64,000 nt of DNA from Candidatus Eiseniibacteriota bacterium. Its GTDB lineage: Bacteria > Eisenbacteria > RBG-16-71-46 > JABDJR01. Made by a program: the position numbers and the translations under genes. The notes under the pieces were generated by a model. That model saw only the letters and a list, made by a program, of their open reading frames with translations. It made no database searches and was not told where the DNA came from. The stretch covers positions 1,372,572 to 1,436,571 of the forward strand of contig CAVXKA010000002.1 in the NCBI GenBank assembly GCA_963762255.1, written 5' to 3'. This document shows positions 9,377 to 51,569 of this stretch, piece after piece. The stretch's first letter is position 1. Each line of letters starts with the position of its first letter.

Positions 9377-12300
9377 TTCCGCTCCCCCTTGCCGGCGCCG
9401 ATCAGCTCCGGTTGCTCGCGCGTGCGCTCGGTGAAGGTGAGATCGCAGCGCAGGCAGCGCCGCGCCTCGCGGGCGGCTTCGTGAACCGAGAGCACCTTCT
9501 CCACTTCGTCGAAGTTGCGCCGGCGCGCCTGGGTAGAGAGCCGCGGCGTCTCGACACGGTCGCCGTCGGCCGGCTCGCCCGTGACCGGCGTCGCCGGCTC
9601 CACGTAGACATCGGGCAGGCGCACCCCCGAGGGCTGCTTGAGCGGCTCGCCCCGCAGGTGGCGTTCGATCATCACCGCCGCCCGTTTGCCGGCGGCGATG
9701 GCGTCGACCACCGTGTTGGGTCCGGTCACGACGTCTCCGCCCGCGAAGACCCCCGGCCTGTTGGTGAGCAGCGTCTCGCGGTCCACCTGGACCGTGCCCT
9801 GGCGCGTGGTTTCGATCCGATTGGCGCCGGCCACCGAGATGCAGTCGGTGTCCGAGCCCTCGCTGATCGCCACGATCAGGGTGTCGAGGGGTACGGTGCG
9901 CTCGCTGCCCGCCACCGGAACCGGCGCACGACGGCCGCCGGCGTCGATCTCGCCCAACCGATTCGTGATGCACTCGATGCCGGTGAGGCGCCCGCCCTGC
10001 GTGAGGATGCGCACCGGCGCGGTGAGGGCCTCGATGCGCACCCCCTCCTCCTGAGCGGCCTCGATCTCCTCCGCGAACGCGGGCATCTCGTTCATGCTGC
10101 GGCGGTAGTAGATCGTCACCTCGGTGACGTCCTTCTGACGGAGCGCCATGCGCGCCGCGTCCACCGCCGAGTTCCCGCCTCCGACCACACCCACGCGCCC
10201 GCGCGCCAGTTCCTCGCCCCCCATGTTGAACGCCTTGAGGAAGCGGATGGATGGAAGGACGCCCTGTGCGTCTTCGTTGGGCAGACCGAGCGCGAGACTC
10301 TTGTGAGCGCCGAGCGCGATGAAGACCGCCTGGAACCCGGAGGTGAACAGATCGTCCAGGGTCACGTCGCGTCCGAGCGTGGTGTTGCACTTGACGGTGA
10401 TGTTCTCGTCCAGGATCGAGGCGATTTCCTTCCGCACCACCTCGCGCGGAAGCCGGTAGCCGGGGATAGCGCTGAAGAGCATGCCGCCGGGCTCCGGATC
10501 GGACTCGAACACCGTCACCTTGTGACCGCTCAGCGAGAGATAGTGCGCGGCGGAGAGCCCCGCTGGGCCGGCCCCCACCACGGCCACTCGCGGCGACTTC
10601 TCGTCGGCCTTCACCCGCCGCACGGGCTTGTAGGTCATGGGATCGCTGCGGTCGGTGATGAATCGCTTGAGCGCTCGGATGGCCACCGGATGCGCGCCCG
10701 AGAGCCCCGCTCGGCAGTGCTCCTCGCAGGGATGATTGCAGACGCGCGCGCATACCGAAGGGAACGGATTCGCCTCGCGGATCGTCTGGTAGGCCAGGTC
10801 GTACTCGCCGCGGGCGATGTGCGCGACGTAGCGCCAGGCCTCGGTCCCGATAGGGCAGGCGGCCTGGCAGGGCGCGCCCACCAACTCGTTGCACACGAGC
10901 GCATCGCACCGCTTGGCGATGATGTGTCGCTCGTACTCCTCGCGGAAGTAGCGCAGTGTGGAGAGCACCGGGTTAGCGGCGGTCTGTCCGAGGCCGCACA
11001 TCGTGGTGTCCTTCACCACCTGGGCCAACTCCTCGAGCAGATCGAGTTGGTCCAGCGAGCCGCGGCCGCTCGTGATGTCGTCCAGAATCTCCCACATCCG
11101 CTGCGTGCCCTTGCGGCAGGTGAAGCACTTGCCGCACGACTCGTCCTTGAGGAAGTTCATGAAGTACTTGGCGACGTCGACCATGCAGGTGTTCTGGTCC
11201 ATCACGATCATGCCGCCCGAGCCCATGATGGAGCCGGCCTCGGCGAGGCTGTCGTAACCGACGCGCAGGTCGAATCGCGCGGCGGGGATGCAACCCCCCG
11301 AGGGCCCGCCGGTCTGGACCGCCTTGACGCGTCCGCCGCCCGGGGGACCTTCGCCGATGCCGTTGACGATCTCGGCCAGCGTGACCCCCATCGGCACCTC
11401 GACCAGACCGGTGTTCTTCACCTTGCCCACCAGGCTGAAGATCTTGGTGCCGGAATTGTTCGTGGAGCCGGTGCGTGCGAACGCGGCGCCCCCATCCGCG
11501 AGCACCAGCGGCACGTTGGCCCAGGTCTCGACGTTGTTGATCGCGGTGGGCTTGCCGTCGATGCCGCGCTGCACCGGGAACGGGGGCCGCTGACGCGGCT
11601 CGCCCATCTTCCCCTCGATGGAGCGGATGAGCGCGGTTTCCTCGCCGCACACGAACGCGCCCGCTCCCCTCACGAGTTGAATATCGAAGCTGAAGCCGGT
11701 GCCGAGGATGTCCTTGCCCAGAAGCCCCAGATCGCGCGCCTGGCGGAGCGCGATGACGAGGTGCTTGATCGCGAGCGGGTACTCGTTGCGGACGTAGATC
11801 ACGCCCTCGGTGGCGCCGGTGGCGAACGCGCCGATCAGCATCCCCTCGATGATGGCGTGGGGATTGCCCTCCAGCACGGCGCGATCCATGTAGGCACCGG
11901 GGTCACCTTCATCGGCGTTGCAGACCAGGATCTTGCCTTTGCCGTTGGGGGCCTCGGCGAGCATCTCCCACTTGCGCCCGGTCGGGAATCCCGCCCCGCC
12001 TCGCCCGCGCAGCCCGGAGGTCTTGATCTCCCCGAGAACCCATTCGCGATCGCCTCCCTCGAGCGCGTCGATCAGCGGGCCATACCCCCCCGACCTGATC
12101 GTGCTGGCGATGCGGATCGGATCCACCTGCTCGCTGCGGGAAAGGATCGTGCGCGTCTGGCGCTGGAAGAAGGGGAGTTCCTCCTGGCGCCGCACCGGCT
12201 CGCCGGTCTGAGGATGGCGAGGCAGCAGTGCCTCGATCACTTCGCCGGCCGCCACCGCGGCGACGATGGCCGCCATGTCTCCGATGCGCACTTTGGGGTA

Positions 12301-14015: not shown

Positions 14016-15359
14016 CTAGTTCTTCTGGGGGACCCTGGGCCGAAGCCTCTCGCGAAGCGTCTTGCGGTCGATCCCCAGGATGCGCGCCGCCTGCGATCGG
14101 TTGCCGCCGACGCTCTGGAGGACGGCGCGGATGTGCTGGACCTCCACCTCGGCCAGGGTGCGCTCGGAGCCGCCACCCCTCAGCGCCGAGTAGCGCATCA
14201 GCGAGGGAAGATCGGAGACGTCGACCGTTTCCCCCTCGGCCATCACCACCAGGCTCTGAATGACGTTCTCCAGCTCACGGACATTGCCCGGCCAGGTGTA
14301 CTCGCGCAGCGCCCGCAAGGCCTCCGGCGAGAAGACCGGCGCGGGCCGCCCCGATTCATCGGCGAACTTCTTCGCGAAATGGTTCACGAGAACGAGAACG
14401 TCGTCGCCGCGCTCGCGCAAGGGCGGGATCGTGATCGAGATCACGTTGAGGCGATAGTAAAGATCCTCGCGCAGCACGTCCTTCTCGACGAGGCTGAGCG
14501 GATCGCGATTGGTGGATGCGACGATGCGCACGTCCACCTTGCGGCTGCGCGTCGTGCCGACCATGCAGATTTGCTTGTCCTGCAGGACACGCAGCAGCTT
14601 GACCTGCATGGCGGGGGACGTCTCGCTGATCTCGTCGAGGAAGATCGTGCCGCCGTCGGCGGTCTGGAAGAAGCCGGCCCGCGATTCGGAGGCGCCGGTG
14701 AACGCGCCCTTGACGTATCCGAACAGCTCGCTCTCGAGCAATCCCTCCGGGATCGCTCCGCAGTTGACAGCCACGAACGGAGCGGAGGAGCGCGGCCCCG
14801 AGTAGTGGATGGCGCGCGCGATCAGTTCCTTGCCCGTGCCGCTCTCCCCCGCGATGAACACGGTGGCGGAGCTTGCCGCGGCCTTGGCGACGGCCCGCAA
14901 CACCGGTCGCATCACTTCGGACTCGCCGAGAAGCCCGTGGAGCGGGCGGGGGCCGACCACCGAGCGCGGCCGCGCGGCCTGGCGAAGCCGCTGCCGCTCC
15001 AGGGCCTCGTCCACCGCGGCCAGCAGCTCGGCATCGCCGCAGGGCCGCATGAGGTACTCGGCGGCGCCGGACTTGATCGCGGCCACCGCCGCCTTGACCG
15101 TTCCCTCGGCGGCAATCATGACGACTTCGACGTCGGTGTGGTTCTCGCGGACGTGCCGCACGAGAGCCATCTCCTCCGTTGCGGACCCCGCGCTCTCCAC
15201 GACCACGATATCGATCGGCGTGGACTCCAGAAGGCGGAGCGCTTCGTCGATGCCCTTCGCGGTGAACACCGTGTGGCCTCTCCCGGCCAGCGCACGCTCC
15301 AGCCTCTCGAGCGCAGGACCTGCGCCGGCAACGGCTAGCATGCGGGGACTTTCAGTCAC
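14016..15359 (-). CDS. sigma54-dependent activator (NtrC-like) with atypical receiver
   Basis: GESGTGKE, GAFTGA, FLDEI, WPGNVRELEN, C-terminal Fis HTH; start set at GTG (VTESPR). Confidence 0.92.
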   Translation of the reverse strand: MTESPRMLAVAGAGPALERLERALAGRGHTVFTAKGIDEALRLLESTPIDIVVVESAGSATEEMALVRHVRENHTDVEVVMIAAEGTVKAAVAAIKSGAAEYLMRPCGDAELLAAVDEALERQRLRQAARPRSVVGPRPLHGLLGESEVMRPVLRAVAKAAASSATVFIAGESGTGKELIARAIHYSGPRSSAPFVAVNCGAIPEGLLESELFGYVKGAFTGASESRAGFFQTADGGTIFLDEISETSPAMQVKLLRVLQDKQICMVGTTRSRKVDVRIVASTNRDPLSLVEKDVLREDLYYRLNVISITIPPLRERGDDVLVLVNHFAKKFADESGRPAPVFSPEALRALREYTWPGNVRELENVIQSLVVMAEGETVDVSDLPSLMRYSALRGGGSERTLAEVEVQHIRAVLQSVGGNRSQAARILGIDRKTLRERLRPRVPQKN

Positions 15360-15496
15360 GAGCGGAGTTCCTCCGATTGCGGTCGGCGGTCCCTCCGACG
15401 GGGGAAGTACCATCCCACCGGGGCCCAACTTACGCCCCCGGCCCGCGTGCGGCAAGGCGGGGTTCCGCCGGGGTGGCGCGGCGCGGCATCGCGCAG

Positions 15497-16957
15497 CTAG
15501 CCGAGTCTCTCTCTGTCGAAGAAGTCCCGAAGCTGCTCCCAGGTCTGTTCGATCCTGTCGCCCTCGAACTCGATGAACTGCAGGCCGGCGAGGTTGCTGA
15601 TCTCCCCCAGCCCCTTCTGCTTGAGCAGCGCCACCCGCTGGAAGCCGAGCTTTCCTTGGAAGAGGCCGGCCTCGTGGATGACGTTCTCTCTCGCCCGCAG
15701 TTCCCCGTCGCTGGTCTTGTCCTCCGCGGTGAGGACCAGGATGGCGAACTCCGCCTGCTCGAGCATGTCCTCCAGCACCGGGACGATGGCGTCGCCGACC
15801 CGGGACTGCGTCTCGTACTCGACCGTCTCCAAGTTGAGTTTCTTCTCGACGAATCGCGCCACCTGCGCCCACAGCGGGCTGCGCCCATGGCCGATGAACA
15901 CCCGCCCCGAGGTCGAAGGGGTCTTGATCCAGCGCCGGAAGGCTTCACCTGAAGGTTGGAGTATGCCGTGGTGAATGGTCAGCAGGCCCAGATCCAGCAG
16001 GCGCGCCTCTCCAGGGTTCAGGTTCTGGCCCGCGGGGGAGTGTCGCCCCGAAGCGGCACGCAGGAGGCATTTCCGCTCCTGTACGTTCAGATTACGCCAG
16101 TAGGACCGATAGAGACCCTGCAGACCGCTGTTCCACCCGAGCAACTCCTCGATCACTTCCCCAAAGCACGTCTCCGTCGAGGTCCCCGTTCTCCGCGTCC
16201 GAATCCAGGCGTCGGCGGTGACCTGGAGAAAATAGGGCATGTCCCCGCCGATGCGTCGAATCGCATCCACCTCTTCTGCAGTCAAGTCGATCCCCACGCT
16301 CTTCGCCGGACCGGTGATCAGAGTCTCCGCTTCCGCGGTGGGCATCGGACCCAACACGATTGGGCTGGGGAGAAAGACATTGCAGAACTCGGAGACGTAG
16401 ATCGGCTCCTCGGCACGGCAGAGCTCAAAGAGCGGGCGGAAGGAGGATGTCACCCAGGTCACCAACTCACTCGTCACCAGGGCGCGCAGGCCTCCGAAAA
16501 AGTCGAGATCGAATCGGTCGTGGCGAACCAGGGTCTCGAACTCGTCCAGCAGGATCACCAACCGACGGCCGTCGGCGACGGACTTGACCCATCTTTCGAA
16601 TCCCACGTAATCCTCAATGGCGATATCGTCCGGTGGCGGGGCCTCGGGAATCACCTTCGTGACCGCGTTCGTCACAGCCTGACGGAACCGGATCGGGTCG
16701 ATGACGTCGGCGAGAAGATCCACGTAGGCCACTGCCACTGGAGGATATCCGGCCCGAATGTCAGGCCGAGGAGCGCCCGAACCCGACATGAGCTGAAGGA
16801 AAGATGTCTTGCCCGCACGCCGCGCCCCGAGCACCTGCATCGAATCGGGGTACTTTCGAGAGATCCTCCTCAGGAAGAACGCTATCTGTTCCTGGCGCCC
16901 GTAGAAGTGGTCTGCATCGACTGGACGACCCGCCACGTAGGGACTACCGGCGCTCAC
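15497..16957 (-). CDS. STAND-like ATPase fused to a C-terminal TIR-like (CAP12/Pycsar-type) domain
   Basis: SPY..G.P...FYGR, GARRAGKTS, LLDEFE, GGDMPYFLQ; then VFIGHGRS...FAILVLTAED...RARENVIHEAGLFQGKLG...SNLAG. Confidence 0.85.
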   Translation of the reverse strand: MSAGSPYVAGRPVDADHFYGRQEQIAFFLRRISRKYPDSMQVLGARRAGKTSFLQLMSGSGAPRPDIRAGYPPVAVAYVDLLADVIDPIRFRQAVTNAVTKVIPEAPPPDDIAIEDYVGFERWVKSVADGRRLVILLDEFETLVRHDRFDLDFFGGLRALVTSELVTWVTSSFRPLFELCRAEEPIYVSEFCNVFLPSPIVLGPMPTAEAETLITGPAKSVGIDLTAEEVDAIRRIGGDMPYFLQVTADAWIRTRRTGTSTETCFGEVIEELLGWNSGLQGLYRSYWRNLNVQERKCLLRAASGRHSPAGQNLNPGEARLLDLGLLTIHHGILQPSGEAFRRWIKTPSTSGRVFIGHGRSPLWAQVARFVEKKLNLETVEYETQSRVGDAIVPVLEDMLEQAEFAILVLTAEDKTSDGELRARENVIHEAGLFQGKLGFQRVALLKQKGLGEISNLAGLQFIEFEGDRIEQTWEQLRDFFDRERLG

Positions 16958-16963
16958 CGTGCG

Positions 16964-19900
16964 CTACCTCAGATCCTGATATCGCAGGATCCACAGACGC
17001 ATCAGATCCACGGCAAACCTGTACTTCTTGAGTCCATCCCCGCCCTGCCGATCCGCCGTGATCAGGTGATGCAGAGCCAGACGATGCAGCGCCTTCACCC
17101 TCTGCTCTTCGCTGACTTCCTTCGTCACCGGCACCAGGATCTCGGATCCCGGAATCCAACGGTTCTGGGTCGCCCCGATCCGGGCCATAGTCCTCAGAAC
17201 AAGGTGGGCGTCTTGCCCGACGTCCGTCCACATTCGGTCCAATACCGCTCCGCCCCCGAATTCTAAGAACGTCCCACCGACTTCTCGAGATACTCGGGCC
17301 CGATCCAATACCCACACTTCTGGCTGTTCATCTCCTCAACGCAGTAATCGCACAGTTGCTGAATCAGGTACGGGTGCCCTCCGGTCAGGCTGAGAATCCT
17401 ATCGACCACCGCATCGTCATAGGTCACGCCCAGTACCTGGACCGGGGTCCGGATCAGGTCGTTTGCCTCCTTGGGCTCCAGGAACCCCACTTCTCGGTGA
17501 TGTGCTACATTGAACAACTCGACCTTGTACTTGAGGTCCATCTCCTCCAGTTCGCGGTGGCCGGCAAGAATGAAGGCCACCCCCTGATCCTCCTGCATGA
17601 GCGCCCGCAAGTAATAGAAGATATCCGCCTCATACTTCTTGTTCTTGACTCGCTCATGCAGACACTCAAACTCATCCAACATGATCAGGACGAGGCCCTT
17701 TCCTCTTCCTCCCATGGCATGAACCGCACTCTCCAGAGTTCTATCAAACGCCGCCCTTGGTCCCTTCGTGAACTCCTCTGCAGGCGGCACCGTGCAAGAG
17801 AGTCCCCGTCCCCCGAGCGCCTTGTCAACTTCTTCAGCCATTCTTGACATGAGCGCAGCCGTCGAATCGCCCAGAAGTTGCAGATCGAGAAACACCGGAT
17901 AGACGGGAAACTGACGCCCCTCTCGAATGCGTTTCCCCAGCTGGCCGCTTTGCAATTGCCTGAGCACGGAGGTCTTACCAGTGTGCGATCCACCATGAAG
18001 TACGAGAGCCCCGCGTCCGGTCTTGCTGAACAGTTTCGCCTCGATCCACTCGAAGATCTCTTCCCGCCCGTAGAAGAGGGGACTGTCTGCGGGGAGCGGT
18101 TTCGTGGTGATATAGGGACTGTCCACCTCCAGATAGACGCGGACCGCTTCATCAATCAGCTTGGACCAATCACCGAAGACACGGGTCAACATGGTCCGCT
18201 CGAGGAGGCTCAGGTCGGAGAGTTGATCCTCGGGGATCTTGAGGAGGTTGAGACATTCTCTCAGTTCGATGCGTCGGCTCGGATCGCGATCGTACTCGGC
18301 GAGGCGATCGCTGACTCGTTGCGCGACAGTCGTGTAACGCTCCCCTAGCTCACGGAGGAAGAACTCTCGCGCGGTGACTCGACTGATCACGGGCCCGGAC
18401 CGCTGCAGAGCGGTTTGGATATCGCCAAGCCGGGATGACTTGAGCGCCACGGTGAGCGCACTCAGAAGATCCTTGCTGGGCCCATGGAGGTCACTGACAA
18501 GCTGATCGAGTACCCCCAGTTGGAATGCGGGATGGAGCAACCCGGCGTAAGTCCGCACGATGCGCGCTTTCACGGAGTCCTCGCGATCCACGATGGCGGC
18601 AGCACTGTCCAAGCTGTTTACGCCTTCCTCGTGGTCCTTCAGGAACCCATGCACGACTTCCACAACGGCGTCGTTGTTCGGGCTGGCGAGAACGTGGTCC
18701 GCAAGATTTCCCGACTCTACGAGGCGGGCGTTCTGTATGGAGATGGCGGCGCTGTTCGCGATCAACTCGAACGCCAACTCCTCCTGGCCGTTGAAATACG
18801 CGAATTCCTTGTCGGCGCCCTTCCCCTTGGTCTTCGTCTCCACCTTGAGCACGCCGACAAGTTCTTTCTGCTTTCCCTTCCCTCCCGCCAAGAGCGGGAT
18901 TCCCATGAACGACTGGCACTTCCTCCCCTTGGCGAAGTTGTGTCTGTCAAAGGTTCCTCGGTGATGGGGATGGAGCGTCAGGTCGAGGTTACTTCTGGCG
19001 GTGAATTTCTCGCGTTTGACGGCAATCCAGACCGTCAGGCCGACCTTCTGGTCCTCCGTCACCGGCCGGTCGACGATGTCCTTGTCCGCCACCAGTTGGT
19101 ACCGGCGCACTCTTGGGCCTCGAGTGGCCCATCCATAGGCCGCCCAGTGCGGCTGCACAAGCTCGTTCCCCTGTTTCAGGAAAAGCGCGCAGGCTTCGGC
19201 GTGGAACAGTTTGGCTGTGTCATGCACGACCTCCTTGACAAGCTTCTGGACATCCAGCTTGCCACTCAGCATGTCTCGGATCGGTTCCATTGCTTTGTGG
19301 ATGACCACATAGCGCTTGGCGTACTGCGTCTGCAAACGCTCGCTCGCCAGCGCGATTTCGTGGGCCAGAAGGTCCAGGCGCCTTTGCTGGACATCGCTGA
19401 AATCGCGGTCGTCTACAGTGCCTCGTACGAACACGTTCTCGACCTTCAACACCCCCGTGATGACTCCGCCGATCTGGAGGGGTACACCCAACCACGCGCC
19501 GCATTCCTGTTGCTTCTCGTAGTTGGATGAGTCGTAGAAGCCCTTGTGGTGGCAGTGTTCTTTGAGTTCATCCATGTTTCGAGCACGGAATTGTCTGCCG
19601 GTCGCGGCGACCCAGGCCGTGAGTCCGACTCTCTCGTCATGGCTCAGGTGCACGCGCTTACAGTCCGCGGGAGAGCATGACCTGGTCCCCAGACAGTGTG
19701 CGACCTTCTCAGGTCCCGGCACCTCGTAGGAGCGGACCACCTTTCGCAGGACCTGCGATCCCCATCCCGCGCGTTGAGTCAGCGTCTTCTTGCTCTCGTC
19801 GATGAGGAAGATCGCTCCGGAATCCGCCTGGGTGGCACTGGCCGCGACGCGCACAACGATGTCCAGGAAGGCATCCAACTCTCCCTCGGTGGCAACCGCT

Positions 19901-20607
19901 TCCTCGATGACTTCTCGGGCCCACAGTGTGATCGCAGCGTCGGCGGATCTATCTCGTTCTTCCACGTAGTCAATGCAGCGGCCAGCCACTCGCGCCAGCG
20001 CCTCAAGCACGAGCTGATCCTTCACCGAGAACGGCTCGCACGGCTCCAGCCGTTCCGCCTTCATCGCGCCGATGATCTTCCCGCGCAGATTCCTCAACGG
20101 AACAGCGAGAAACGTACCCACCTGGTTACCCGGTTCCGGTAGCTGGACTGGATCGTAGTCCCCTCTCTGATGGGGATGTTGCTTCAGCTCCGCGGGGGTC
20201 TTGGCAAGAAACGCCTTCCCGGTGGAGATGACCCAGCCCGTTAACCCGAGCCTGTCCTCCTTGAGCGAAGGAGAGTCGGGCACGCCATCCGGGGGGAGAA
20301 CGTGGCAAATGGCCTGATTGATGAAATGCTTCTGGTACCCGCTGGCTGCACGCATCGTGGCCGTCCCGTCCCCAGCCAATCCAGCGGTCTCGTCCACGAT
20401 GTAGATCGCGCAGGCATCCACTTGAAGGACAGCGCCAGGCCCGTCGACCTTGTCCGTGATCCGGGCGATCAGCGCATCCAGCTTCGCGCCGGCGGCCAGA
20501 TCCGCGATGAGGAGTGACTGAAGGTCGGTCGAGAGCCGCAGGAGGTCCTGGGTCGCATCGGTTACGGGGGGTGCGGACGTCAGAGTGACGGTGTCGGGTG
20601 AAGGCAT
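16964..20607 (-). CDS. Triple-GAF, helical linker and STAND-like ATPase (single frameshift near 17273)
   Basis: Three GAF repeats (GLTxW...HxHxxGxxD...GxxKxE); SPYITTKP...FYGRE, GGSHTGKTS, MLDEFE, TGGHPYLIQ; C-terminal winged helix lies in ORF 16964..17317. Confidence 0.8.
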
Positions 20608-20646
20608 GCGGCCTCCCATGCGAAGTGCAAGCCGGAGTGCTGCCGG

Positions 20647-21090
20647 CTACTTGGTTTTTCGGGGCGATCGCTCCATCTCGCGCAGCACGCAATCGGTGAG
20701 AACCTCGGTCTCGGCCACGTCATGCGCGGTCAATTGCTCGATGAACTGGCTGGTGTCGGACCGCAGTTTGGCCAGGGAACCGCTCATGAGAGCGTTGCAG
20801 TCCCGGATGAGACCGTTGAGGCCTTCCATCAGGATCCGGTGTTCCCGGAGAAGCCCGTCCACGCGCTCGGTGTGTTGCGGCGCGTGACTTTCGATAATGG
20901 CGTAGAGCCCCTCGTCCCCTTCTTCGCGATTGAAGTGATTCTCGAACTGGCGATGCAGATCCTCCAGCACGATCAACATCACGTTCGGATCGGTCATGGC
21001 CTGCAGGCGCTCCACCGTCGCTCGCATCTCGAGGTGTTCCTCGGTGATCTTGGATTCGAGACTGCGCACGTCGATGCCCGGGGTTCCCAT
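20647..21090 (-). CDS. Hemerythrin-like (HHE) domain protein
   Basis: EEH, HFNREE, REH, AHDVAE metal-ligand pattern in a four-helix protein. Confidence 0.7.
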   Translation of the reverse strand: MGTPGIDVRSLESKITEEHLEMRATVERLQAMTDPNVMLIVLEDLHRQFENHFNREEGDEGLYAIIESHAPQHTERVDGLLREHRILMEGLNGLIRDCNALMSGSLAKLRSDTSQFIEQLTAHDVAETEVLTDCVLREMERSPRKTK

Positions 21091-21255
21091 GACGAGGCTC
21101 CTTGTTCCGCACGATTCTCCGGTGCTGCCGGCGGCGGCTCGGCCGGTCGGCCGACCAAGGCTCCATGCTCGCAGATGCAGGGGCACCGATTCCATGCAAA
21201 ACAGGGCGGCGCGCGTCGCGGATCAATAAGCTACTGATTGCGTCGTCTATCCGCG

Positions 21256-23865
<2,610 letters not shown>

Positions 23866-27326: not shown

Positions 27327-29618
27327 ATGAACTCATTCCTCTTCCTGGCCACGCTGAACCTCGCCCTGGGGGGCCTGGTGTTTCTGCTCGGGCTCGTGAT
27401 CCTGCGCGAGAACCCCTGGCAGAAGCTGAACCGCATCGTCGCCTTCATGCTCTTCTTCGGCGGGCTGGGATCGGTGCTGGCGGGGCTCGGCTTCCTGGCC
27501 GTGCGGCCGTCGCTCCCCCAGGCGACCTCGGCGCAGGGGTCGCTCGGTCACTTCTCGTATCTCTGGGAGTTCTTCTTCCCCACGCTCCTCCTCTTCGCGA
27601 GCTACTTCCCGACCGAGCGCCCGTTCACCCGCAAGATCAGGGGCTTCGACATCCTGGTCTACATACCCCACGCCTTCCATTTCGTGCTGCTCCTGGGCAT
27701 CGCGATCGTGGGGGCGCGAGCGTCCCTGCCCGAGCTGAACGCGCCGTCGGTGCTGCGGCCGTTCGTGAGCCTGGGAGGCCTGCTCGCGGGGTTCTTCCTG
27801 GCCGTCCACACCGCGCTCTTCTCGCTGGTGAACCTGGGCTACGGCGTGGCGACGGCGATCCTGCTCGTGCAGAGTTCCCGTAGGGCGCGGGTGCCCCGGC
27901 TCAGGCGGCAGCTCCGCGTGATCGGCGTCGGGCTCATCCTCTGCCTCATCTTCTACACGGCGGCCACATCGATCCCCACGCTCCTGAACCAGTCCATACC
28001 CGAGTGGATGCGCGCGATTCTTATCATCGCGGCGCTGACCGCCGCATCCGGTTCCATCGCCTATTCGATGGTGCGGTACAAGTTTCTGGACACGAAGCTC
28101 CTCGCCCGTCGCGGCATCCTCTACGCGGTGGCTTCGGCGGTGATGGTCGGCCTCTATCTCGGGGTGGCCGACGAGCTGAACCGCCTCGTCGGCGGGTTCA
28201 TCGGCGTCGACCCGCGCGTCTTCCAGCCCGTGTTCCTTGTCATCGGGCTCATTCTCTTCCAGCCTGCGATCTCGAAGCTGGAGGATATGCTGGACCGGCT
28301 TCTCCTGCGCGATCCGAGCGACTACCGCAACATCCTCAAGCGTCTGGGACGCGAACTTCTCACCACCATCGATCTCGACGATATGCTCTCGCAGTCCATC
28401 CGCACCGTCGCCGAGGCCCTGATGCTGCGCAACGCCCATGTGGTCGCTCTCGCCCGCGAGGGTCCCCTGGTGGTGACGGGGTCGGGGAAGCAGCCGGAGG
28501 AAGAGGATCCGGGCACGCTCGCCGCTCTGCTGAACCGTCTGGACCCGGGGATCGAGAGCTTCCGGCTCTACGGTCCGGTCGAGGAGATGGAGCGCGCCGA
28601 CCGCTCCTATTTCGTCAACCACTTCCAGGCATCGCTCGTGATCCCGCTGCGCACGAAGGGCGAGACGGTGGGAGCGCTCCTCCTCGGAGACAAGGTCACC
28701 GGGACCGACTACACCTCGGAGGACGTGAACCTCCTCTCCGCGCTGGCGGCGCAGATGTCGATTTCCGTACAAAACGGCTTGCTGCTGCGCGATCGCGTGG
28801 CGGTCGTGCGCATGGAAGAGGAGCTGAACCTCGCACGGCGCATCCAGAAAAGCTTCCTTCCATCGCAGTTTCCGACCATGACGCATCTCGACGTGCACGC
28901 GCTCACCCATCCATCCCGCCAGGTGGGAGGAGATCTCTACGATCTCGTCGCCGTGGAGGACGGCGCGTACTTCCTCGCCATCGCCGACGTGTCGGGGAAA
29001 GGCGTGCCCGCCGCGCTCTTGAGTTCGATGATCCAGGCGTCGCTGCGCACGCAAGCCGACGGGAGACTGTCCGTCTCCTCGATCGTCGACAAGATCAACG
29101 GCCTCATCTACCGGAGCACGACCCCGGAACAGTTCGCGACGTTCTTTCTGGCCCGCGTCGAGGAGCGGACGCTGCGCATGTCGTTCTCCAACGCCGGGCA
29201 CAACTATCCGGTGCTCTGCCGCAAGGGGGGTGGCCACCTCTTCCTGGAGCGAGGCGGGATGCTGCTCGGGATCTTCGACGACGCTCGCTTCGAGGAGGAG
29301 TCCGTGCAACTCGCGCCCGGCGATCGTGTCGTGCTCTATACGGACGGCATTACCGAGGCAATGAATCGCGAGGAGGAGGAGTTCGGGGAAGAGCGGCTCT
29401 GCACGCTTGTCCGCGGCCTGCCGTCGAGCCTCTCGGCGCGCGAGGTCACGGAGAAGATCGTGACCGATCTCCACGCGTTCCTGGACGGCGAGGAGCCGCA
29501 GGACGATGTGACGGTGATGGTGCTGCGCGTCTTGGAGCCCGCGCTCGCGGCGCAGGTCCACGAGGGCGAGGCGGTGGCGGTCGGGGCCCTCGGCGGGGCC
29601 CCGACCGCGGCGGTCTAG
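27327..29618 (+). CDS. Multi-TM + GAF + SpoIIE/RsbU-like PP2C phosphatase
   Basis: About 9 TMs, GAF, ARRIQKSFLP, VGGDLYD, DVSGKG, NAGH, YTDGITEA, DDVT. Confidence 0.9.
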   Translation: MNSFLFLATLNLALGGLVFLLGLVILRENPWQKLNRIVAFMLFFGGLGSVLAGLGFLAVRPSLPQATSAQGSLGHFSYLWEFFFPTLLLFASYFPTERPFTRKIRGFDILVYIPHAFHFVLLLGIAIVGARASLPELNAPSVLRPFVSLGGLLAGFFLAVHTALFSLVNLGYGVATAILLVQSSRRARVPRLRRQLRVIGVGLILCLIFYTAATSIPTLLNQSIPEWMRAILIIAALTAASGSIAYSMVRYKFLDTKLLARRGILYAVASAVMVGLYLGVADELNRLVGGFIGVDPRVFQPVFLVIGLILFQPAISKLEDMLDRLLLRDPSDYRNILKRLGRELLTTIDLDDMLSQSIRTVAEALMLRNAHVVALAREGPLVVTGSGKQPEEEDPGTLAALLNRLDPGIESFRLYGPVEEMERADRSYFVNHFQASLVIPLRTKGETVGALLLGDKVTGTDYTSEDVNLLSALAAQMSISVQNGLLLRDRVAVVRMEEELNLARRIQKSFLPSQFPTMTHLDVHALTHPSRQVGGDLYDLVAVEDGAYFLAIADVSGKGVPAALLSSMIQASLRTQADGRLSVSSIVDKINGLIYRSTTPEQFATFFLARVEERTLRMSFSNAGHNYPVLCRKGGGHLFLERGGMLLGIFDDARFEEESVQLAPGDRVVLYTDGITEAMNREEEEFGEERLCTLVRGLPSSLSAREVTEKIVTDLHAFLDGEEPQDDVTVMVLRVLEPALAAQVHEGEAVAVGALGGAPTAAV

Positions 29619-30357: not shown

Positions 30358-30668
30358 TGCATCCCTCCTCGGCCAGATCTGATTTGATCGGCCGCTACCC
30401 ATGATTTCGGGCGAATCGATGGAGTGACCTTAGCACGACGGCGTGGAGAAAACAAACAGGGGGGGAAGCGCCGACGCGGTACGCGGCTCTTTGCGTCGGG
30501 GGTGCCACGCGGAGCGCGAATGGTACCGTTCGGGTCGCGGTGCGGTGCAATGCTCAAGAAAAAACGGGGCACTCCTGCATTTTCCTGTTGACCTATTCAT
30601 TTGTGCAGTGGATACTCCGTTTGCCTGCCCACTTCCCCCGTCTCTCCCCGTCCGTGGAGGGACAGATC

Positions 30669-31775
30669 ATGTCGACCGTTCAGTTGAATTCGGTACTGTC
30701 CGCCCGCGAGGTGGACGCTCGTCTGCGCACAGCGCTGGACGAGCTGCAAGCCGCCCAGCGCAACGCCGTGCTCTGGTTCGCGGAGATCCTGAACCGGCAC
30801 CTCTACCGAGAGCTCGGCTACTCCTCGATTCACGCGTACGCTGCGGAGGCCTTGGGGTTCTCGCGGACGCGGACGGCCCAGTACTTGCGGCTGAGTCGTT
30901 CACTGGAGTCATTGCCGGCCTTGAAGCACGTGGTGGCGTCGGGAGAGATGCCCTGGACCAAGGCTCGTGTCGTGGCCCAAGTGGCAACGCCGGAAACCCA
31001 GGACTTCTGGATCGACCAGGCGCGATGCAAGGGCCGCCGCGACTTGGAACACCAGGCGACGCTTGCCCGTCGGCGGACGCGCGCCGGGATCCGGAGCGGC
31101 TCCGGTCAGCCCGATCTGCTCGGCCCCACGGCGGAACCTACCTCCCTGGAAGTCACTGTCGAGGTTCCCGTCGACCTGACCTTCCGGTTCAGCCCTGAGG
31201 AATACGCCCGATACGAGGCTCTGATGGAGAAGGCCCGGAAGAAGGGCGAACGGGGCTCTCGCGAGAGGGTACTGCTGGCGGCGCTGGAGCGGTTGGTGGT
31301 CGCGGGAAGCGAAGCGGCTGACGCCGTCTCTGGAGACGAGGCGACGGGCGCCGGCGGCGAAACGATGTGTACCCGGGTACACAGTTCAGAGCCCCGCTAT
31401 CAGGTCGTCGTCACCCAGTGCCCCGATTGCGGGCGGGCGGAGGCGCAGACCAGCCGCGGGGCCAAGCCCTTGGGGCTGCCCGCGCTCCAGGCCGTGCTCT
31501 GCGACGCACGCGTGCACCACAAGGGTGAGAAGAACCGGGCGACGATACCTCCGGCGCGCCGCCGGAAGGTGCTGGCCCGCGACGGCTACCGGTGCCGCGC
31601 ATCCGGGTGCGAGAGCCCCCACTTTCTCGACGTGCATCACATGATGCCGCGCGAGCGGGGTGGGACGAACGACCCCGACAATCTCATTACTCTCTGCGCC
31701 GCTTGCCACCGGTTGATTCACGAGCGCGGTCTGCCGCTGCGCGCGACCGAGGGGAACCTCGCAAGTCGAGGCTGA
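30669..31775 (+). CDS. HNH endonuclease with helical N-terminal region
   Basis: RDGYRCRASGC...LDVHH...GGTNDPDNLITLCAACH; GGAGG RBS; TTGACC-17-GATACT upstream (30588-30616). Confidence 0.85.
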   Translation: MSTVQLNSVLSAREVDARLRTALDELQAAQRNAVLWFAEILNRHLYRELGYSSIHAYAAEALGFSRTRTAQYLRLSRSLESLPALKHVVASGEMPWTKARVVAQVATPETQDFWIDQARCKGRRDLEHQATLARRRTRAGIRSGSGQPDLLGPTAEPTSLEVTVEVPVDLTFRFSPEEYARYEALMEKARKKGERGSRERVLLAALERLVVAGSEAADAVSGDEATGAGGETMCTRVHSSEPRYQVVVTQCPDCGRAEAQTSRGAKPLGLPALQAVLCDARVHHKGEKNRATIPPARRRKVLARDGYRCRASGCESPHFLDVHHMMPRERGGTNDPDNLITLCAACHRLIHERGLPLRATEGNLASRG

Positions 31776-33977: not shown

Positions 33978-34679
33978 TCATTCCCGATACCCCCGCATGC
34001 GCAGGATCGCCTCGGCGAGGAGGAGATCGCTCGGCACGGTGATCTTGATGTTGGTCACTTCGCCCTCGACCCAGGACACCGGATGATTGATGCGCAAGAC
34101 GAGGGACGCTTCGTCGGTGCCCCTGAAGTGCTCCGCCCGCGCGCGCTGGTGCGCGTACTCGAGGACCGGCCGATGAAAGCCCTGGGGCGTCTGCACAGCG
34201 AGCAGCTCGGAGCGATCCACGTAGGCCTTGAGCCAGGTTTCATATCCCACGCGGGCCACGCTGTCACGCAACGGAAGCGCGGGCACCAGCGACTCGCCGC
34301 CGTCCAGCCGGTCGAGCACGCGGCGGATCAGATCGCGCGACACCAGCGGACGCGCCGCATCGTGAACGACGATCCAGTGCGGCTTGCCGCCCAGCGCATC
34401 GATGCCGTTGAACACCGAGTCCTGCCGCTCCGCCCCACCCGCCACCAGATCGACATCGCGCTGCAGGTGCAGCGGCGCGATCACCTGCTCTCGGAACAGG
34501 GCCTCGCTGCCGGGGGGCACCACGACCACGCGCTCCACGATCTCGTGGAAGTCGTCGAAGGCCAGCAAGGTCCACGCAAGAAGAGGATGACCCAGGAGAG
34601 GCACCAACGCCTTGGGCTCCGGGCGCCCCAGACGTTCGCCGCGCCCGGCGGCCACGATCACCAGACCGACGTCGTTCAT
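33978..34679 (-). CDS. ispD: CDP-ME synthase
   Basis: AAGRGERLG, GGAERQDSV, HDAARP, QTPQGF, NIKITVPSDL (3' part of track ORF 33978..36197). Confidence 0.93.
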   Translation of the reverse strand: MNDVGLVIVAAGRGERLGRPEPKALVPLLGHPLLAWTLLAFDDFHEIVERVVVVPPGSEALFREQVIAPLHLQRDVDLVAGGAERQDSVFNGIDALGGKPHWIVVHDAARPLVSRDLIRRVLDRLDGGESLVPALPLRDSVARVGYETWLKAYVDRSELLAVQTPQGFHRPVLEYAHQRARAEHFRGTDEASLVLRINHPVSWVEGEVTNIKITVPSDLLLAEAILRMRGYRE

Positions 34680-36172
34680 CGCTCGCGTCCTCCAGGCATC
34701 TGTGCGTGCGCCCGCCGAGGCCCACCCGCCGACCCGCGTCCACCGCCCGCCATCCCTCGTCCGCCACCCGGCGCGTCGCGATGCCCCGACCGCGGCGCCC
34801 CCGAGATCCCCAGCGCCTTCTCCAACGCCTCGTCCACCCGCGCCACCGGCACGAGCGTGAGCGGGGCCGCCTCCATTTCCTTGACCGCGCGTGCCGGGAC
34901 GATCGCCTGCGTGAAGCCGAGCTTGGACGCCTCGTGCAGGCGATGCTGCAATTGCCCTACCCGACGGACCTCGCCGCCCAAACCGACCTCGCCCACCACC
35001 ACTGTACGCCCGTCCAACGGAATGTCGTGATACGAGGAGGCGACCGCCATCGCCACCGCGAGGTCGATCGCGGGCTCGACGACTCGGAACCCTCCCGCCA
35101 CGCTCACGAACACGTCGCTGGTCGAGAAGTCCAACCCGGCGCGCTTCTCGAGCACGGCCAACAGCACCGCGAGCCGGCGCGCGTCCACCCCGGTGGCCAC
35201 GCGACGCGGCACGCTGAACCCGGCGCTGCCGACCAGTGCCTGCACTTCGAGCAGGATCGGCCGCGTCCCCTCCAGAGCGGGCGAGACCGCCGATCCCGAC
35301 ATGCCCTCGCGGCGTTCCTCCAATAGGAACTCCGAAGGATTCGAGACCGCTCGCAATCCATCGTCCCCCATCTCGAACACGCCGACTTCGTGGGTCGGAC
35401 CGAACCGGTTCTTGGCCGCCCGGAACAGTCGATAGTGATGATAGCGGTCGCCTTCGAGGTAGAGCACCGCGTCCACCATGTGCTCCATGACGCGCGGGCC
35501 GGCCACCATGCCTTCCTTGGTCACGTGCCCGACCAGGATGACCGGGATCTGCGAGCGCTTGGCGAGTTCCAGAAAGTAGAGCGTGTTGTCGCGCACCTGG
35601 GCCACGCTTCCCGGCGCGCTGTCCGCCTCCGCGCTGTGCAGCGTCTGCACCGAGTCGACGATGATCACGTCCGGAGAAGCGGCCTCGAACGCCGGCGCCA
35701 CCGTCTCCACCCGGGTCGAAGCGAGCACTTGCAGGCGCTCGTCGATCCCGCCGAGTCGCCGGCTGCGCATACGGAGTTGGCGCTCCGATTCCTCCGCGCT
35801 GACGTAGAGCACCACGAGACCCTGCGCGGCGTAGGCCGAGGCCGCCTGCAACAGCAACGTGGACTTCCCCACCCCGGGATCGCCGGCCACCAATACCAGG
35901 CTCCCCGGCACGAGTCCGCCGCCCAGCACGCGGTCGAACTCCTCGATGCCGGTGCGGTAGCGGGGGAGGCTCTCGGCGTCGATATCGCCCAGGGACTTGA
36001 CGATCGGTGTTTCCGCGCGGCCCGGCGAGCCGCCCCAGCCGCGGCCGCGCGGGGGCGCCTCGACCCGGCGCTCCTCGAGCGAGTTCCAGGCTTCGCAACC
36101 GGGGCAGCGCCCCAGCCATTGGGGCGCGATGTGGCCGCACTCGCGGCAGACAAAGCGCGTCTTGACCTTCAT
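34676..36172 (-). CDS. radA: DNA repair protein RadA/Sms
   Basis: CRECG...GRCPGC Zn finger, GDPGVGKST, KNRFG; own ATG and RBS at 36172. Confidence 0.95.
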   Translation of the reverse strand: MKVKTRFVCRECGHIAPQWLGRCPGCEAWNSLEERRVEAPPRGRGWGGSPGRAETPIVKSLGDIDAESLPRYRTGIEEFDRVLGGGLVPGSLVLVAGDPGVGKSTLLLQAASAYAAQGLVVLYVSAEESERQLRMRSRRLGGIDERLQVLASTRVETVAPAFEAASPDVIIVDSVQTLHSAEADSAPGSVAQVRDNTLYFLELAKRSQIPVILVGHVTKEGMVAGPRVMEHMVDAVLYLEGDRYHHYRLFRAAKNRFGPTHEVGVFEMGDDGLRAVSNPSEFLLEERREGMSGSAVSPALEGTRPILLEVQALVGSAGFSVPRRVATGVDARRLAVLLAVLEKRAGLDFSTSDVFVSVAGGFRVVEPAIDLAVAMAVASSYHDIPLDGRTVVVGEVGLGGEVRRVGQLQHRLHEASKLGFTQAIVPARAVKEMEAAPLTLVPVARVDEALEKALGISGAPRSGHRDAPGGGRGMAGGGRGSAGGPRRAHAQMPGGRER

Positions 36173-36292
36173 TCCAGCTCCCTTCCGACGGGGCCACCGG
36201 CGGGTGGGGGGAGGCAGGACGCGGGGGCGGGAAGCGCGCGCTGCGCCGCCTCGCGGATCGCGCTCGCCGCGCCGCCTTCCCGATCGCGCGGG

Positions 36293-37195
36293 ATAGAACA
36301 CGCTGACCTTGAAGTAGCGGCGTGGGTTCTTCTTGACGTCGTTGAGGAGCGCGCGAGTGTCCTGCACCGTGGTGACCAGTTCGTCGTAGAGCGCCCGGTC
36401 GTGAATAACCTGGGAGAGGGTGCCCTGCGAAGAGTCCACCATCGCCATCACGTTGTCCATGCGCAGGAGCGTGCGATTCAGGGTCACCAGGGTCGTGTCG
36501 AGTCGAACGGACGCTTTCGCGGCGCCGTCCAGGATCTGGCCCAGCTCGTCGCCGCGCCCCTCCATCGCGATGCGCAGCTCCCGTGTGGCCGCCTGCATGT
36601 CCGTGAGCATGAGCGAGAGGTCCTCGTGGTTCCGCTGGAGCAATGTCGCGAGCTGCGCGGTCACCTGCTCCGTATTGGCAAGCGTGCGGACGAGAAGCTC
36701 CTGATCGGATTCGCTGAAAGCGGCGAGCAGCGTGTCCAGTCGCGTGGCCAACCGCTCGAAGGTGGCTATGCTGCCTCCCAGGCTCGACATGAGCTGAGGG
36801 ATGCCGGCCTGATACTCACCGTGAAGCACGGCGCCGGGAGGGAGCGGCTCGGCGGGCGGCCCCGGATACACGGCCACCAGCTTCTGCCCCATGATCCCGA
36901 CGTTCTCGAGCACGACCTTCGTGTGCGGGTAGAGACGGATACCCTTCTCGAGTTGCATGGTGACCACCGAACTCCCGTTCTCGAACGCGATGGCGGACAC
37001 CTTCCCCGAGGGTACGCCCTGCACTTCGACCGGGTCTCCCTTGAGGAGCCCGCTCGCGGTGGAGAACTCCACCTTCACGTCGTACGTGGCGCCGCGGATC
37101 TTGAAGTCCTTGAACCACAGCACGCCCCAGATCAGGACGACGATGGCCAGGATGAAGACGACGCCGACCTGGACTTGGTATCGCTGCTCCGTCAT
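36293..37195 (-). CDS. mlaD: MlaD/MCE family protein (expected stop missing)
   Basis: N-terminal TM, GLLKGDPV..QGVPSGKV, helical tail ending KNPRRYFKVSVF. Confidence 0.85.
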
Positions 37196-49375: not shown

Positions 49376-50700
49376 CTAGGGAGTCATCCCCTTCAGCACG
49401 GCGTGGATGATCTCCATCGCCTTGTCGATCTCCTTGTCGGTGACGGTCAGCGACGGCCGGAACCGCACCGACTGGGTGCCGCAGGCCAGCACGATCATCT
49501 TGCGGTCGTAGCAGGCGTCGAGGAACTTCTCCCGCACCTCCGCCGACGGCAGGTCGAACGCGCACATCAGCCCGCGCCCGCGCGGCTGGGAGATGAACTT
49601 CGGGAAGTCGCGGGCCATCTGCTCCAGGCGGTCCAGCAGGTAGAGGCCGCGCAGCCGGGCGTTCTCCAGCAGGTTCTCCTCCTCGATGATCTCGAGGTAG
49701 AGCTGGCAGCGGACCATGTCGATGAGGTTGCCGCCCCAGGTGGAGTTGATGCGGCTGCGGACGTTGAAGACGTGCTGTCGATCTCGTCGACCCGCGGGCC
49801 GGCGAGGATCCCGCAGACCTGGGTCTTCTTGCCGAAGGAGAGGACGTCCGGCTTGACGCCGAGCTGCTCGTGCGCCCAGAACGTGCCGGTGAGCCCCACG
49901 CCGGTCTGCACCTCGTCGAAGATGAGCAGGAACTCGCGCTCGTCGGCCAGCCGGCGCAGCTCGCGCAGGAACTCGGCGCGGAAGTGGTTGTCGCCCCCCT
50001 CGCCCTGGATCGGCTCGATGATGCAGGCCGCGATGTCGTCACCGAACTTCTCCACCGCCTGCTCGATCTCCGCCACCGCGTGCTGCTCGGCCTGATGGTG
50101 GCCTCGAGGTTCTCCCCCTCCAGGGGGAATCGGGCCGTCGGGTGGCTGATGCGCGGCCACTCGAATTTCGGGAAGTACATCGTCTTCCGCGGATCGGCGG
50201 AGTTGGTCAGCGACAGCGTGTAGCCGGTCCGCCCGTGGAACGCGCTGCGGAAGTGGATGACCTGGTGCCCACGTCCGCCGCGTACCCCTGGCCAGGTTCT
50301 TGCGCACCTTCCAGTCGAAGGCGGCCTTGAGGGCGTTCTCCACCCCAGCGCCCCGCCGGCGATCCAGAACACGTGGGGCAGACTCCGGCCGGCTGGGCCA
50401 GCCGCCGGAAGGTGTCCACGAAGTCGGCCATCACCGTGTTGTAGAAGTCGGAGAGGGACGGGTTGTGGATGGCCACCTCGCCCATGAAGCGCTTGAACTC
50501 GGGCTTGTTGATCTTCGGGTGGTTGTGGCCGACCGGGTTGGTGGCGAAGTAGGAGAAGAAATCCAGGTATTCGGCGCCGTCCCGGGCGTCCACGATCATG
50601 GAGCCGTGGCTCTTTCTGCAGGTCCACCACCAGCGGGTAGCCGTCCACAAGCATCGACTTCTGCAGCGTGTCGAAAGACGTCGTTGGTCTTGATCGTCAT
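49376..50700 (-). CDS. lat: L-lysine 6-aminotransferase (class III), frameshifted
   Basis: MLVDGYPLVVDL, YLDFFSYFA, ENALKAAFDWK, AFHGRTGYTLSLTN, IIEPIQGEGGD, FDEVQTG, FGKKTQVCG. Confidence 0.85.
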
Positions 50701-51059: not shown

Positions 51060-51509
51060 ACGTTGACCGATAGTTGCGAATTTTCAGCTCCACCTCGAGG
51101 TCCATGCCCTTCAATAGATGGATCACTTCCTGAAGGTCGTCGCGCTTGGGGCCGGTCACGCCGGACTGGCCGCAGGCTCCAGGCCGCCGGAGGGCCTTGC
51201 GGCCGGAATTCACGGGCTGCCCGAGAGGGCTGCTTATGCTACCATTGCCTGCCCCCCGCCGTCTGATCTCAAGGTTCGACGTTGCCGAGGTAACGGTTGG
51301 ACCGGATTGGCTTCCTGGAGTCATCCAATAGCGGCGCTGAAAAGGTCCGCGCCGATATCGATGGGGCGGCCCGCGCGAACTCGAGCGAGAACTTCACTGC
51401 CTTGAAATCGTAGCGGGTGGTGAGTTCCTGTGAGCGTCTGGTTGACCGCGTTGTGGATCTCCTGCAGATCGACCCCCGTGGTGACGTCGAATGATTCCTT
51501 GGATGCCAT
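51060..51509 (-). CDS. yajQ: YajQ family nucleotide-binding protein, frameshifted
   Basis: SFDVTTGVDLQEIHNAVNQ, TRYDFK, VTGPKRDDLQEVI...NYR. Confidence 0.8.
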
Positions 51510-51569
51510 GGGCCGACGCTACGCCAGGCGGCGTTGATCCGCCGCGTTCCATCGGATACGCTGCGGGCC

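Follow-up and report, generated by a model that had tools for sequence, protein, structure and literature searches.

Two adjacent genes in a 64,000-nucleotide stretch of a Candidatus Eiseniibacteriota genome (contig CAVXKA010000002.1, positions 1,372,572 to 1,436,571; the whole stretch is called the window below) probably form an acquired conflict module of the abortive-infection or regulated-dormancy type that is built on paralogous NLR-like ATPases. Gene A (main open reading frame, ORF, at 17263..20619, minus strand; 1118 amino acids from the ATG at 20619) encodes three GAF domains followed by a helical linker and a STAND NTPase. Gene B (15497..16957, minus strand; 486 amino acids, GTG start) encodes a second STAND NTPase to which a TIR domain of the Cap12/Pycsar type is attached. 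This reading is carried by the domain composition of the two proteins, their strict pairing, the swapping of effectors, the co-inheritance of both genes, the island character of the locus and a number of fold similarities. It would further imply that A binds B, that the GAF domains recognize a ligand, that the TIR domain is an active NADase, and that the pair plays a role against phages.

Pairing, effector exchange and transfer of the A-B module

The A family comprises about 55 clusters at 38–55% identity, almost all of which originate from metagenomes or metagenome-assembled genomes (MAGs). When an alignment of 25 A members was used as query, 36 loci were retrieved from genome and metagenome collections, and 23 of them contain an A-type gene (triple GAF plus STAND), with two ending at a contig edge. 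In all 21 testable loci, as well as in the window, a B-type STAND gene is located directly downstream on the same strand. Since locus L030 repeats locus L014 the testable loci represent 20 distinct sequences, which together with the window amount to 21 distinct systems. The order is always A then B, and the two genes are tightly spaced or overlap. An earlier note on this DNA, made by a model from the nucleotide sequence alone, had proposed a search for conserved pairs of a triple-GAF ATPase and an ATPase-effector protein with swapped effectors, and this is the pattern that emerged.

A is devoid of an effector in every locus, and B carries a varying one among the 21 distinct systems. A PF10137 TIR domain is present in two of them (the window and L014), a TIR_2 domain in four (L004, L016, L019, L021), a calcineurin-like phosphoesterase (Metallophos) in one (L005) and an unassigned C-terminal tail in three (L003, L006, L018). 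The B proteins of the other 11 systems possess an N-terminal single transmembrane (TM) helix plus a coiled coil, and all 11 include a 19-residue segment with a Kyte-Doolittle (KD) value of at least 1.9. No sensor family was matched on B by Pfam in the scans run, and a third conserved gene near the pair was not detected among 124 flanking ORFs of 20 loci. A third gene is found in L007, where it represents an extra intact B-type gene without effector.

When the ATPase of B alone was compared with 1.84 billion representative sequences, 55 proteins were retrieved at E ≤ 1e-30 and 777 at E ≤ 1e-10. Among the best 95 of these representatives, 75 match nSTAND2, and the effectors found on them include TIR_2 (10), TIR (7), PF10137 (6), EAD7 (7), PNP_UDP_1 (4), Pkinase (3), Metallophos (3), TCAD2 (3) and caspase (1). 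The domains appended to this ATPase family are of the types that prokaryotic conflict systems use as effectors.

A maximum-likelihood tree of 18 A proteins is divided into two clades, each with 100/100 support, of which one holds nine proteins with TM partners and the other nine proteins whose partners have soluble C-terminal effectors. The A protein of the window and that of a Myxococcales MAG are sisters (100/98), and each of them is paired with a PF10137 TIR partner. The distance matrices of A-STAND and B-STAND modules correlate with r = 0.79, a value that was reached in 0 of 2000 permutations and that matches in strength what is obtained when two parts of A are correlated with each other (r = 0.70). 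This shows that A and B are co-inherited as a unit, the correlation bearing on inheritance and not on binding.

In the window the pair is flanked by a gene for a sigma-54-dependent bacterial enhancer-binding protein (bEBP; 14016–15338) and, upstream of A, by a gene for a hemerythrin-domain protein (20647–21195, minus strand). The likelier start of A is the ATG at 20607, which is preceded by a GGGAGG ribosome-binding site and corresponds both to database protein P0121 (1114 amino acids) and to the end coordinate in the earlier note. The true stop codon of A (TAG, 16964–16966) is followed 6 nt downstream by the GTG of B at 16957, and a GAGG motif (16967–16970) is located 9 nt upstream of that GTG. 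GC content is 0.55–0.64 over positions 15500–20999 versus 0.64–0.71 in the flanks, and GC content at third codon positions (GC3) is 0.74 for A and 0.80 for B versus 0.88 for the bEBP gene and 0.91 for ClpB. The description in the earlier note of two co-oriented genes 6 nt apart, less GC-rich than their neighbors and located between a bEBP and a hemerythrin gene, is therefore borne out by both ORF coordinates and composition.

A search of 40 related genomes revealed no true relative of A, with weak partial matches in eight of them (best 28% identity, confined to the ATPase). Taken together with the low GC and GC3 values, this identifies the A-B module as a horizontally acquired island. Its hosts (Chloroflexota, KSB1, Acidobacteriota, Myxococcota) are mixed on the A tree, and the module is transferred between phyla. 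ClpB orthologs (77–84% identity) in four family relatives have no hemerythrin, A, B or bEBP gene within 10 kb downstream, so that the boundaries of the island are not definable by synteny.

Domain architecture of the proposed sensor and executor proteins

In protein A, Pfam recognizes GAF (PF01590) in three stretches (2.2e-32), AAA_22 and nSTAND1 (36.4 bits; cut-off 27.1), and the match to nSTAND2 (PF20702) remains below its cut-off (14.4 versus 24 bits). The three GAF domains, which the earlier note had already discerned, are encoded on the minus strand. GAF1 (19948..20547; approximately residues 25–224) has its closest solved folds among PtsP-type GAF domains, and for GAF2 (19318..19884; approximately residues 246–434) the closest single-domain folds are the GAF-A domains of DosS and DosT. 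GAF3 (18700..19251; residues 457–640) is closest to GAF-B of PDE2A and PDE6 and to the cAMP-bound GAF domain of Lcd1. An unusual histidine-rich loop is present in each of them, namely HPHQ in GAF1, HCHH in GAF2 (355–358) and HPHH in GAF3 (550–553).

The predicted model of the triple-GAF cassette is of good quality (pLDDT 87, pTM 0.83). Its fold matches include GAF tandems of phosphodiesterases and cyclases that bind cyclic nucleoside monophosphates (cNMPs), such as PDE2/5/6 and CyaB2. Heme- and PtsP-type GAF domains score similarly, and in this model-based comparison the fold scores are too close to name a GAF ligand. A PDB search with the single sequence of GAF3 yielded only PDE2A GAF-B, with a non-significant E value of 1.3. 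In GAF3 the pattern T595-K596 ... F609-x3-E613-E614 is reminiscent of the NKFDE signature of cNMP-regulated GAF domains, which is kept only partly. Unlike the GAF tandems of PDE2/5/6 and cyanobacterial CyaB2, protein A possesses three GAF domains rather than two, shares with them 12–21% identity, and has HPHH or HCHH in place of the usual loop.

Among 32 A proteins, mean pairwise identity is 0.64 for GAF3, 0.56 for GAF2 and 0.47 for GAF1. The nucleotide-binding domain reaches 0.44, the helical/winged-helix end 0.31 and the linker 0.28. The GAF cassette is thus the best-conserved and the linker the least-conserved part of the protein. A sensor that is more conserved than its ATPase is the opposite of what is expected for repeat sensors facing evolving phage proteins, and this conservation argues for the GAF cassette being a sensor of a conserved small ligand.

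The linker (18130..18699, minus strand; residues 641–830, about 190 residues) has no Pfam match. It leads into the STAND NTPase (17272..18129, minus strand), with Walker A encoded at 17971–17994, Walker B at 17665–17685 and GGHPY at 17368–17382. The motifs of this module are SPYITTKPL..FYGR (834–852), GGSHTGKT (876–883), IMLDEFE (979–985), GGHPY (1080–1084) and, in a shifted frame, RLWILRY. The last of these belongs to the C-terminal part of A (16964..17275, minus strand), a helical/winged-helix end with the sequence ..RLWILRYQDLR that is read in the other frame. Elsewhere the A-type ATPase is fused to beta-propeller/FG-GAP arrays (about 1650 amino acids), HEAT repeats, TIR domains or N6-methylases, which places it among NLR-like proteins with classical sensors.

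Protein B matches nSTAND2 with 41 bits (cut-off 24), although only over profile positions 108–228 of 279, as well as nSTAND1, and its residues 352–465 match CAP12-PCTIR_TIR (PF10137) with 86.5 bits (cut-off 24.7). The predicted model (pLDDT 86.7, pTM 0.78) consists of a nucleotide-binding domain (residues 1–205), a helical domain (207–302), a winged helix (315–345) and the TIR domain. The first three make up the STAND module (15923..16957, minus strand), with Walker A at 16805–16828 and Walker B at 16535–16555. The motifs are SPYVAGRPV..FYGR (5–21), GARRAGKT (44–51), ILLDEFE (135–141), GGDMPY (237–242), FRRWI (340–344) and NVIHEAG (425–431). In Foldseek searches with the ATPase of B, the archaeal structures 2qen (6e-11) and 2fna ranked first, followed by the NRC2/3/4 resistosomes, NLRC4, Sr35 and ORC/Cdc6.

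The TIR domain (15500..15904, minus strand; residues 352–486) matches the fold of the TIR-STING (Cap12) structure 9lmq (9lmq_D), and NVIHEAG of B aligns with NVVFEFG of that Cap12 chain. This alignment indicates that Glu429 (15671–15673), which we take to be the catalytic residue, is kept in B. Assignment to the Cap12/Pycsar family with retention of the glutamate, as had been suspected for a TIR-like domain, thus proves correct. PADLOC v2 recognizes B by TIR models (PDC-S35, PycTIR at 2.8e-15, CBASS TIR effector at 6e-13), with two further weak matches to CARF8 and PDC-S27 (E >0.003).

The ATPase modules of A and B are 32% identical over residues 3–275 of B (E 1.6e-13) and, judged by their sequences, are paralogous. 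All motifs that had been named as common to both are present, in agreement with their assignment to the same ATPase class. An invariant arginine after Walker B (R1001 in A, R158 in B) is a candidate arginine finger. All 17 A sequences and 20 of 22 B sequences retain the Walker A lysine, and both partners therefore look like normally active ATPases. The lysine is lost in B-type genes of L006 (11583–13391, GTRSSGVTD) and L007 (L007a, 10527–11942, GAHRTGITS).

Proposed mechanism and competing explanations

If A and B form a conflict module, a conserved small ligand would bind to the GAF cassette, most likely via GAF3, and release the ATPase of A from autoinhibition. ATP-bound A may then nucleate, or co-assemble with, B into a hetero-oligomer in which TIR domains are gathered to form composite NADase sites. 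Consumption of NAD+ or, in the other clade, clustering of membrane helices would stop growth of the cell. In such a scheme A would be the constant sensor and B the executor, that is, a sister ATPase that carries a swappable effector.

Two paralogous STAND proteins that split sensing and execution are known from eukaryotes, where NAIP seeds NLRC4 and plant sensor NLRs trigger NRC helpers. The likeness is a functional analogy only. A specific sequence relationship to the eukaryotic pairs is missing, the fold matches are shared by all STAND/ORC-type ATPases, and 2qen and 2fna rank higher. By this analogy it is possible, albeit doubtful, that the A-B pair is a bacterial 'paired NLR' gated by a small molecule, in which the triple-GAF STAND is an orphan receptor that nucleates a separate executor STAND. 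Candidate cues, proposed just as tentatively, are a cyclic nucleotide from an unlinked cyclase or from another defense system, or else a heme/gas or redox cue. Were this true, an NLR-type switch would read a chemical alarm instead of a pathogen protein, and the split between sensor and helper would exist already in bacteria.

A number of observations weigh against a conflict module. Several of them would fit a physiological role, in which a triple-GAF STAND would respond to a metabolic, redox/gas or second-messenger state and drive dormancy or development instead of phage defense, its partner adjusting NAD+ or making a TIR-derived signal. The triple-GAF cassette is present also, at about 50% identity, on histidine kinases (HATPase_c with or without receiver; L012, L015, L023, L028, L029, L033) and on medium-chain dehydrogenases (ADH_N/Glu_dehyd_C; L017, L034, L035), a kind of reuse that is typical of ordinary signaling. 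The cassettes of these loci are 35–53% identical to that of the window, and their occurrence on both types of enzyme characterizes the cassette as a portable input module; across the respective loci no neighbor is conserved. The stronger conservation of the sensor relative to the ATPase would be in line with a physiological signal, as would the resemblance of GAF2 to the heme-binding GAF domains of DosS/DosT along with a hemerythrin gene 39 nt upstream of A in the window. Most A-B neighborhoods consist of housekeeping genes, and PADLOC-recognized defense genes occur within about 7 kb in only 3 of 20 loci, leaving 17 without such neighbors. No relative of A was found in viral contigs, and plasmids yielded one distant STAND protein fused to a methylase and none for B. 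A nucleotide cyclase is absent from the scanned window proteins and from the 124 flanking ORFs of 20 loci, and the one PF00211 cyclase of the genome lies about 170 kb from the pair. TPR or WD40 sensors are missing from A, B, the window and the same flanking ORFs, so that the lack of both a nearby cyclase and such a sensor, as remarked earlier for the window, extends to these loci.

A second two-STAND pair exists in the same phylum. It consists of an A-type STAND (N-terminal) with a membrane helix and PEGA repeats, followed by a Ser/Thr Pkinase-nSTAND2 protein (nSTAND2 146–157 bits), and was detected in four of five loci examined (L071:3492–7576, L073:4246–8364, L075:1758–6298 and L072:1494–6071 in genomes G013, G138, G042 and G043), with a 4-nt overlap of the two genes in L071 and L075. 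It shares with the A-B module the order of an A-type before a B-type STAND gene and suggests that this duo is a general two-protein STAND scaffold, equipped in this case with an extracytoplasmic sensor. The proteins differ from those of the window in having the ATPase N-terminal, a membrane helix plus PEGA on the A-type protein and an N-terminal kinase on the B-type partner, and are only 28–31% identical to them. Such sister pairs look like signaling and could be just that, which is a further point against a conflict function of the A-B module.

Despite these points we consider purely physiological signaling rather unlikely. The effectors are those of conflict systems (two TIR families, TM helix, PNP, caspase, EAD7, TCAD2, metallophosphatase), the phyletic pattern is patchy and shaped by horizontal transfer, a hemerythrin gene was not seen among the 124 flanking ORFs of other loci, and some pairs reside inside restriction-modification (R-M) or Hma islands. 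In L007 the neighbors are a type I R-M system plus GmrSD. In L010 (3666–18242) the gene order is HmaC/DUF499, DUF7680, A, B, HmaB/DUF1156 methylase and a TIR_2-KAP NTPase (QatA-like), which means that the pair is nested inside an Hma-type system. A CHAT-NACHT protein is encoded next to the pair in L003, a resolvase or Mu transposase near it in two further loci, and a TIR_2 protein in one. A match of a RidA protein in L011 to PD-T4-2_B was discounted because RidA is a housekeeping protein. It is more improbable still that two independent STAND systems happen to lie side by side, or that A merely represses B in an antitoxin-like fashion without joining an active complex. Each protein does have its own intact ATPase, and the same ATPase clade includes proteins that unite STAND and TIR in a single chain (P0360, P0365). 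However, the invariable adjacency in fixed order and at coupling distances, the co-inheritance, and the division of parts (A never with an effector, no Pfam sensor family matched on B) speak against independence. They exclude pure chance adjacency, an argument that does not extend to the repressor variant.

The conflict-module reading presupposes that gene A is functional, and A is frame-broken in the sequence as given, which counts against that reading as well. At 17273–17275 (minus strand) one base is short in a GGG run (CCC on the plus strand), the two frames overlap there, and A continues in the other frame as ORF 16964..17317 (minus strand). One might envisage a decaying pseudogene pair with a real frameshift, in which loss of the C-terminal helical/winged-helix end of the sensor leaves a dead or deregulated system; we regard this as improbable. 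It would agree with a stop codon three codons past the shift, and the sole public sequencing run with part of the stretch (share 0.08) has contigs that span only 17512–17841 and thus miss the site. A reading of S-V-G followed by T-F-L matches the consensus of 25 and of 32 homologs column for column, and because this consensus runs through the site without a gap one base must be missing in A. Repaired A would have about 1,215 residues, compared with 1165–1260 amino acids in its relatives. Programmed −1 frameshifting was considered and rejected as unlikely since 17 homologous A genes each form one uninterrupted ORF, a finding that also disfavors decay, and since the site contains no slippery X XXY YYZ heptamer.

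Frame breaks of the same kind affect housekeeping genes of the window. A class-III aminotransferase is spread over three overlapping frames (49376–49717, 49567–50343 and 50207–50650, minus strand; Pfam profile positions 301–403, 170–260 and 12–50) and a biotin carboxylase over two (51491–52450 and 52264–52971, plus strand), both split genes lying within 4 kb. In L016, another long-contig MAG locus, the A gene is in four pieces. Given a single homopolymer indel in a gene that otherwise keeps all its motifs, and similarly split housekeeping genes nearby in the window, the most likely source of the frameshift in A is an error of the assembly, and the A-B module is therefore probably intact in the organism. 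Indel errors seem to be frequent in this assembly, a caveat for any gene of the genome that is called a pseudogene.

Related systems and further features of the window

A module of this general kind has been predicted before. Kaur, Iyer, Burroughs and Aravind (eLife 2021, PMC8195603) describe, as a computational prediction only, a mobile operon of two genes, each of which encodes a STAND NTPase. In the parts of their paper that concern it, including Fig. 6C, the operon reads '??+STAND+wHTH' (with '??' for an N-terminus of unassigned nature) then 'nSTAND2+wHTH+TPRs+HEPN', and a conserved arginine finger in both proteins is the basis of a predicted toroidal hetero-multimer. The A-B module shares with this operon, as described there, adjacent co-directional STAND genes with variable effectors on the second gene, and its B ATPase passes the PF20702 cut-off, whereas A does not and passes nSTAND1. 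By contrast, both ATPases are intact here, while according to the same account the effector-bearing STAND of the nSTAND2 operon has eroded NTP motifs and is inactive; the lysine-less partners in L006 and L007 resemble that 'inactive STAND plus effector' state. The effectors differ too, those of the nSTAND2 operon being described as mostly GT4 or HEPN behind TPRs and those on B being TIRs, a TM helix or a metallophosphatase. No GT4 or HEPN Pfam family was found on the scanned B partners or among the 25 families listed, out of 31, for the B-ATPase representatives.

The triple-GAF sensor on A is another difference. GAF is absent from the main text of PMC8195603, and in the 12 supplementary files searched, out of 13, it is never fused to nSTAND. 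In Kaur et al. (2020), GAF comes up solely as one of the general nucleotide-binding domains. The term does not appear either in the text of a 2026 preprint on 589 STAND clades (10.64898/2026.01.04.697583), whose supplements may list this clade. Literature searches found no paper on a GAF-STAND pair. ESM Atlas contains clusters of GAF+AAA_35 proteins (826–1139 amino acids), commonest in Cyanobacteriota, and the GAF-ATPase fusion as such is therefore already in databases, though unnamed. The suggestion in the earlier note that the pair is undescribed thus holds in part: PADLOC v2 names neither A nor the pair, and the triple-GAF form was not found in the text or in those 12 supplements of the 2021 paper. 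It does not hold in so far as a two-STAND operon with swappable effectors is predicted in the sections of that paper devoted to it and the B ATPase matches its nSTAND2 family above the cut-off. As the two-STAND logic and, by this match, the B family are shared with the nSTAND2 operon, we conclude that the A-B pair is a real conserved module and a variant of the predicted two-STAND kind but not categorically new.

Comparison with established defense systems reveals partial likeness as well. The B proteins of the window and L014 share with Cap12 (TIR-STING) of CBASS and with PycTIR of Pycsar the TIR family PF10137, the glutamate of the window's B being aligned with Cap12. In those systems TIR is linked to a nucleotide-binding domain and a cyclase is present in the operon, unlike the situation here, where TIR is attached to a STAND ATPase and no cyclase is linked. 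Avs/AVAST and bNACHT proteins combine a STAND switch with an effector that acts on oligomerization, TIR being one of the effectors. In these families one polypeptide chain includes everything, with a TPR-like or other repeat sensor to bind proteins of the phage, whereas sensor and effector of the A-B module reside on two paralogous ATPases and the sensor is a conserved GAF cassette. A gave no PADLOC hit at all and B only those to the TIR models and the two weak matches, so that neither protein is recognized by an Avs model, and NACHT (PF05729) was not found at E ≤ 0.1.

If confirmed, the A-B module would offer a tractable bacterial model for a sensor STAND that hands activation over to a separate, paralogous executor STAND, and for STAND switches gated by small molecules as opposed to pathogen proteins. 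It would also add a defense or dormancy family that current catalogs have missed, probably because almost every member retrieved belongs to an uncultured lineage of Chloroflexota, Acidobacteriota, Myxococcota, KSB1 or the like. Reuse of the conserved triple-GAF cassette on kinases and dehydrogenases points to a widespread ligand that is worth finding in its own right.

The hemerythrin gene next to A ends 39 nt ahead of the likely start of A, and a GC-rich hairpin is located between the two genes. Its GC3 value (0.78) is low like that of the rest of the island. None of the 124 flanking ORFs of other A-B loci encodes a hemerythrin, and the gene either belongs to the cargo that the island carries or acts as a regulator locally. 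A promoter and terminator scan of positions 15200–21500 gave nothing above shuffled sequences, and Rfam and tRNA scans of the window produced no matches.

Further away from the pair, positions 59331–59657 and 60589–61848 (plus strand) contain a transposase ORF (HTH_Tnp_1) and an integrase-core ORF (rve), which we take to be an IS3-like element and which adjoin a gene for an FGE-sulfatase-domain protein (61836–63236, minus strand). In one ORF of 839 codons (34676–37195, minus strand), MlaD occurs together with a zinc ribbon and a KaiC/RadA-like ATPase; the ORF probably represents two genes, mlaD and radA, in a single open frame, or another frame artifact. Two other genes on the plus strand encode a 411-amino-acid protein of which only a C-terminal HNH nuclease was matched (30540–31775), and a 763-amino-acid protein with a SpoIIE-type phosphatase (27327–29618).

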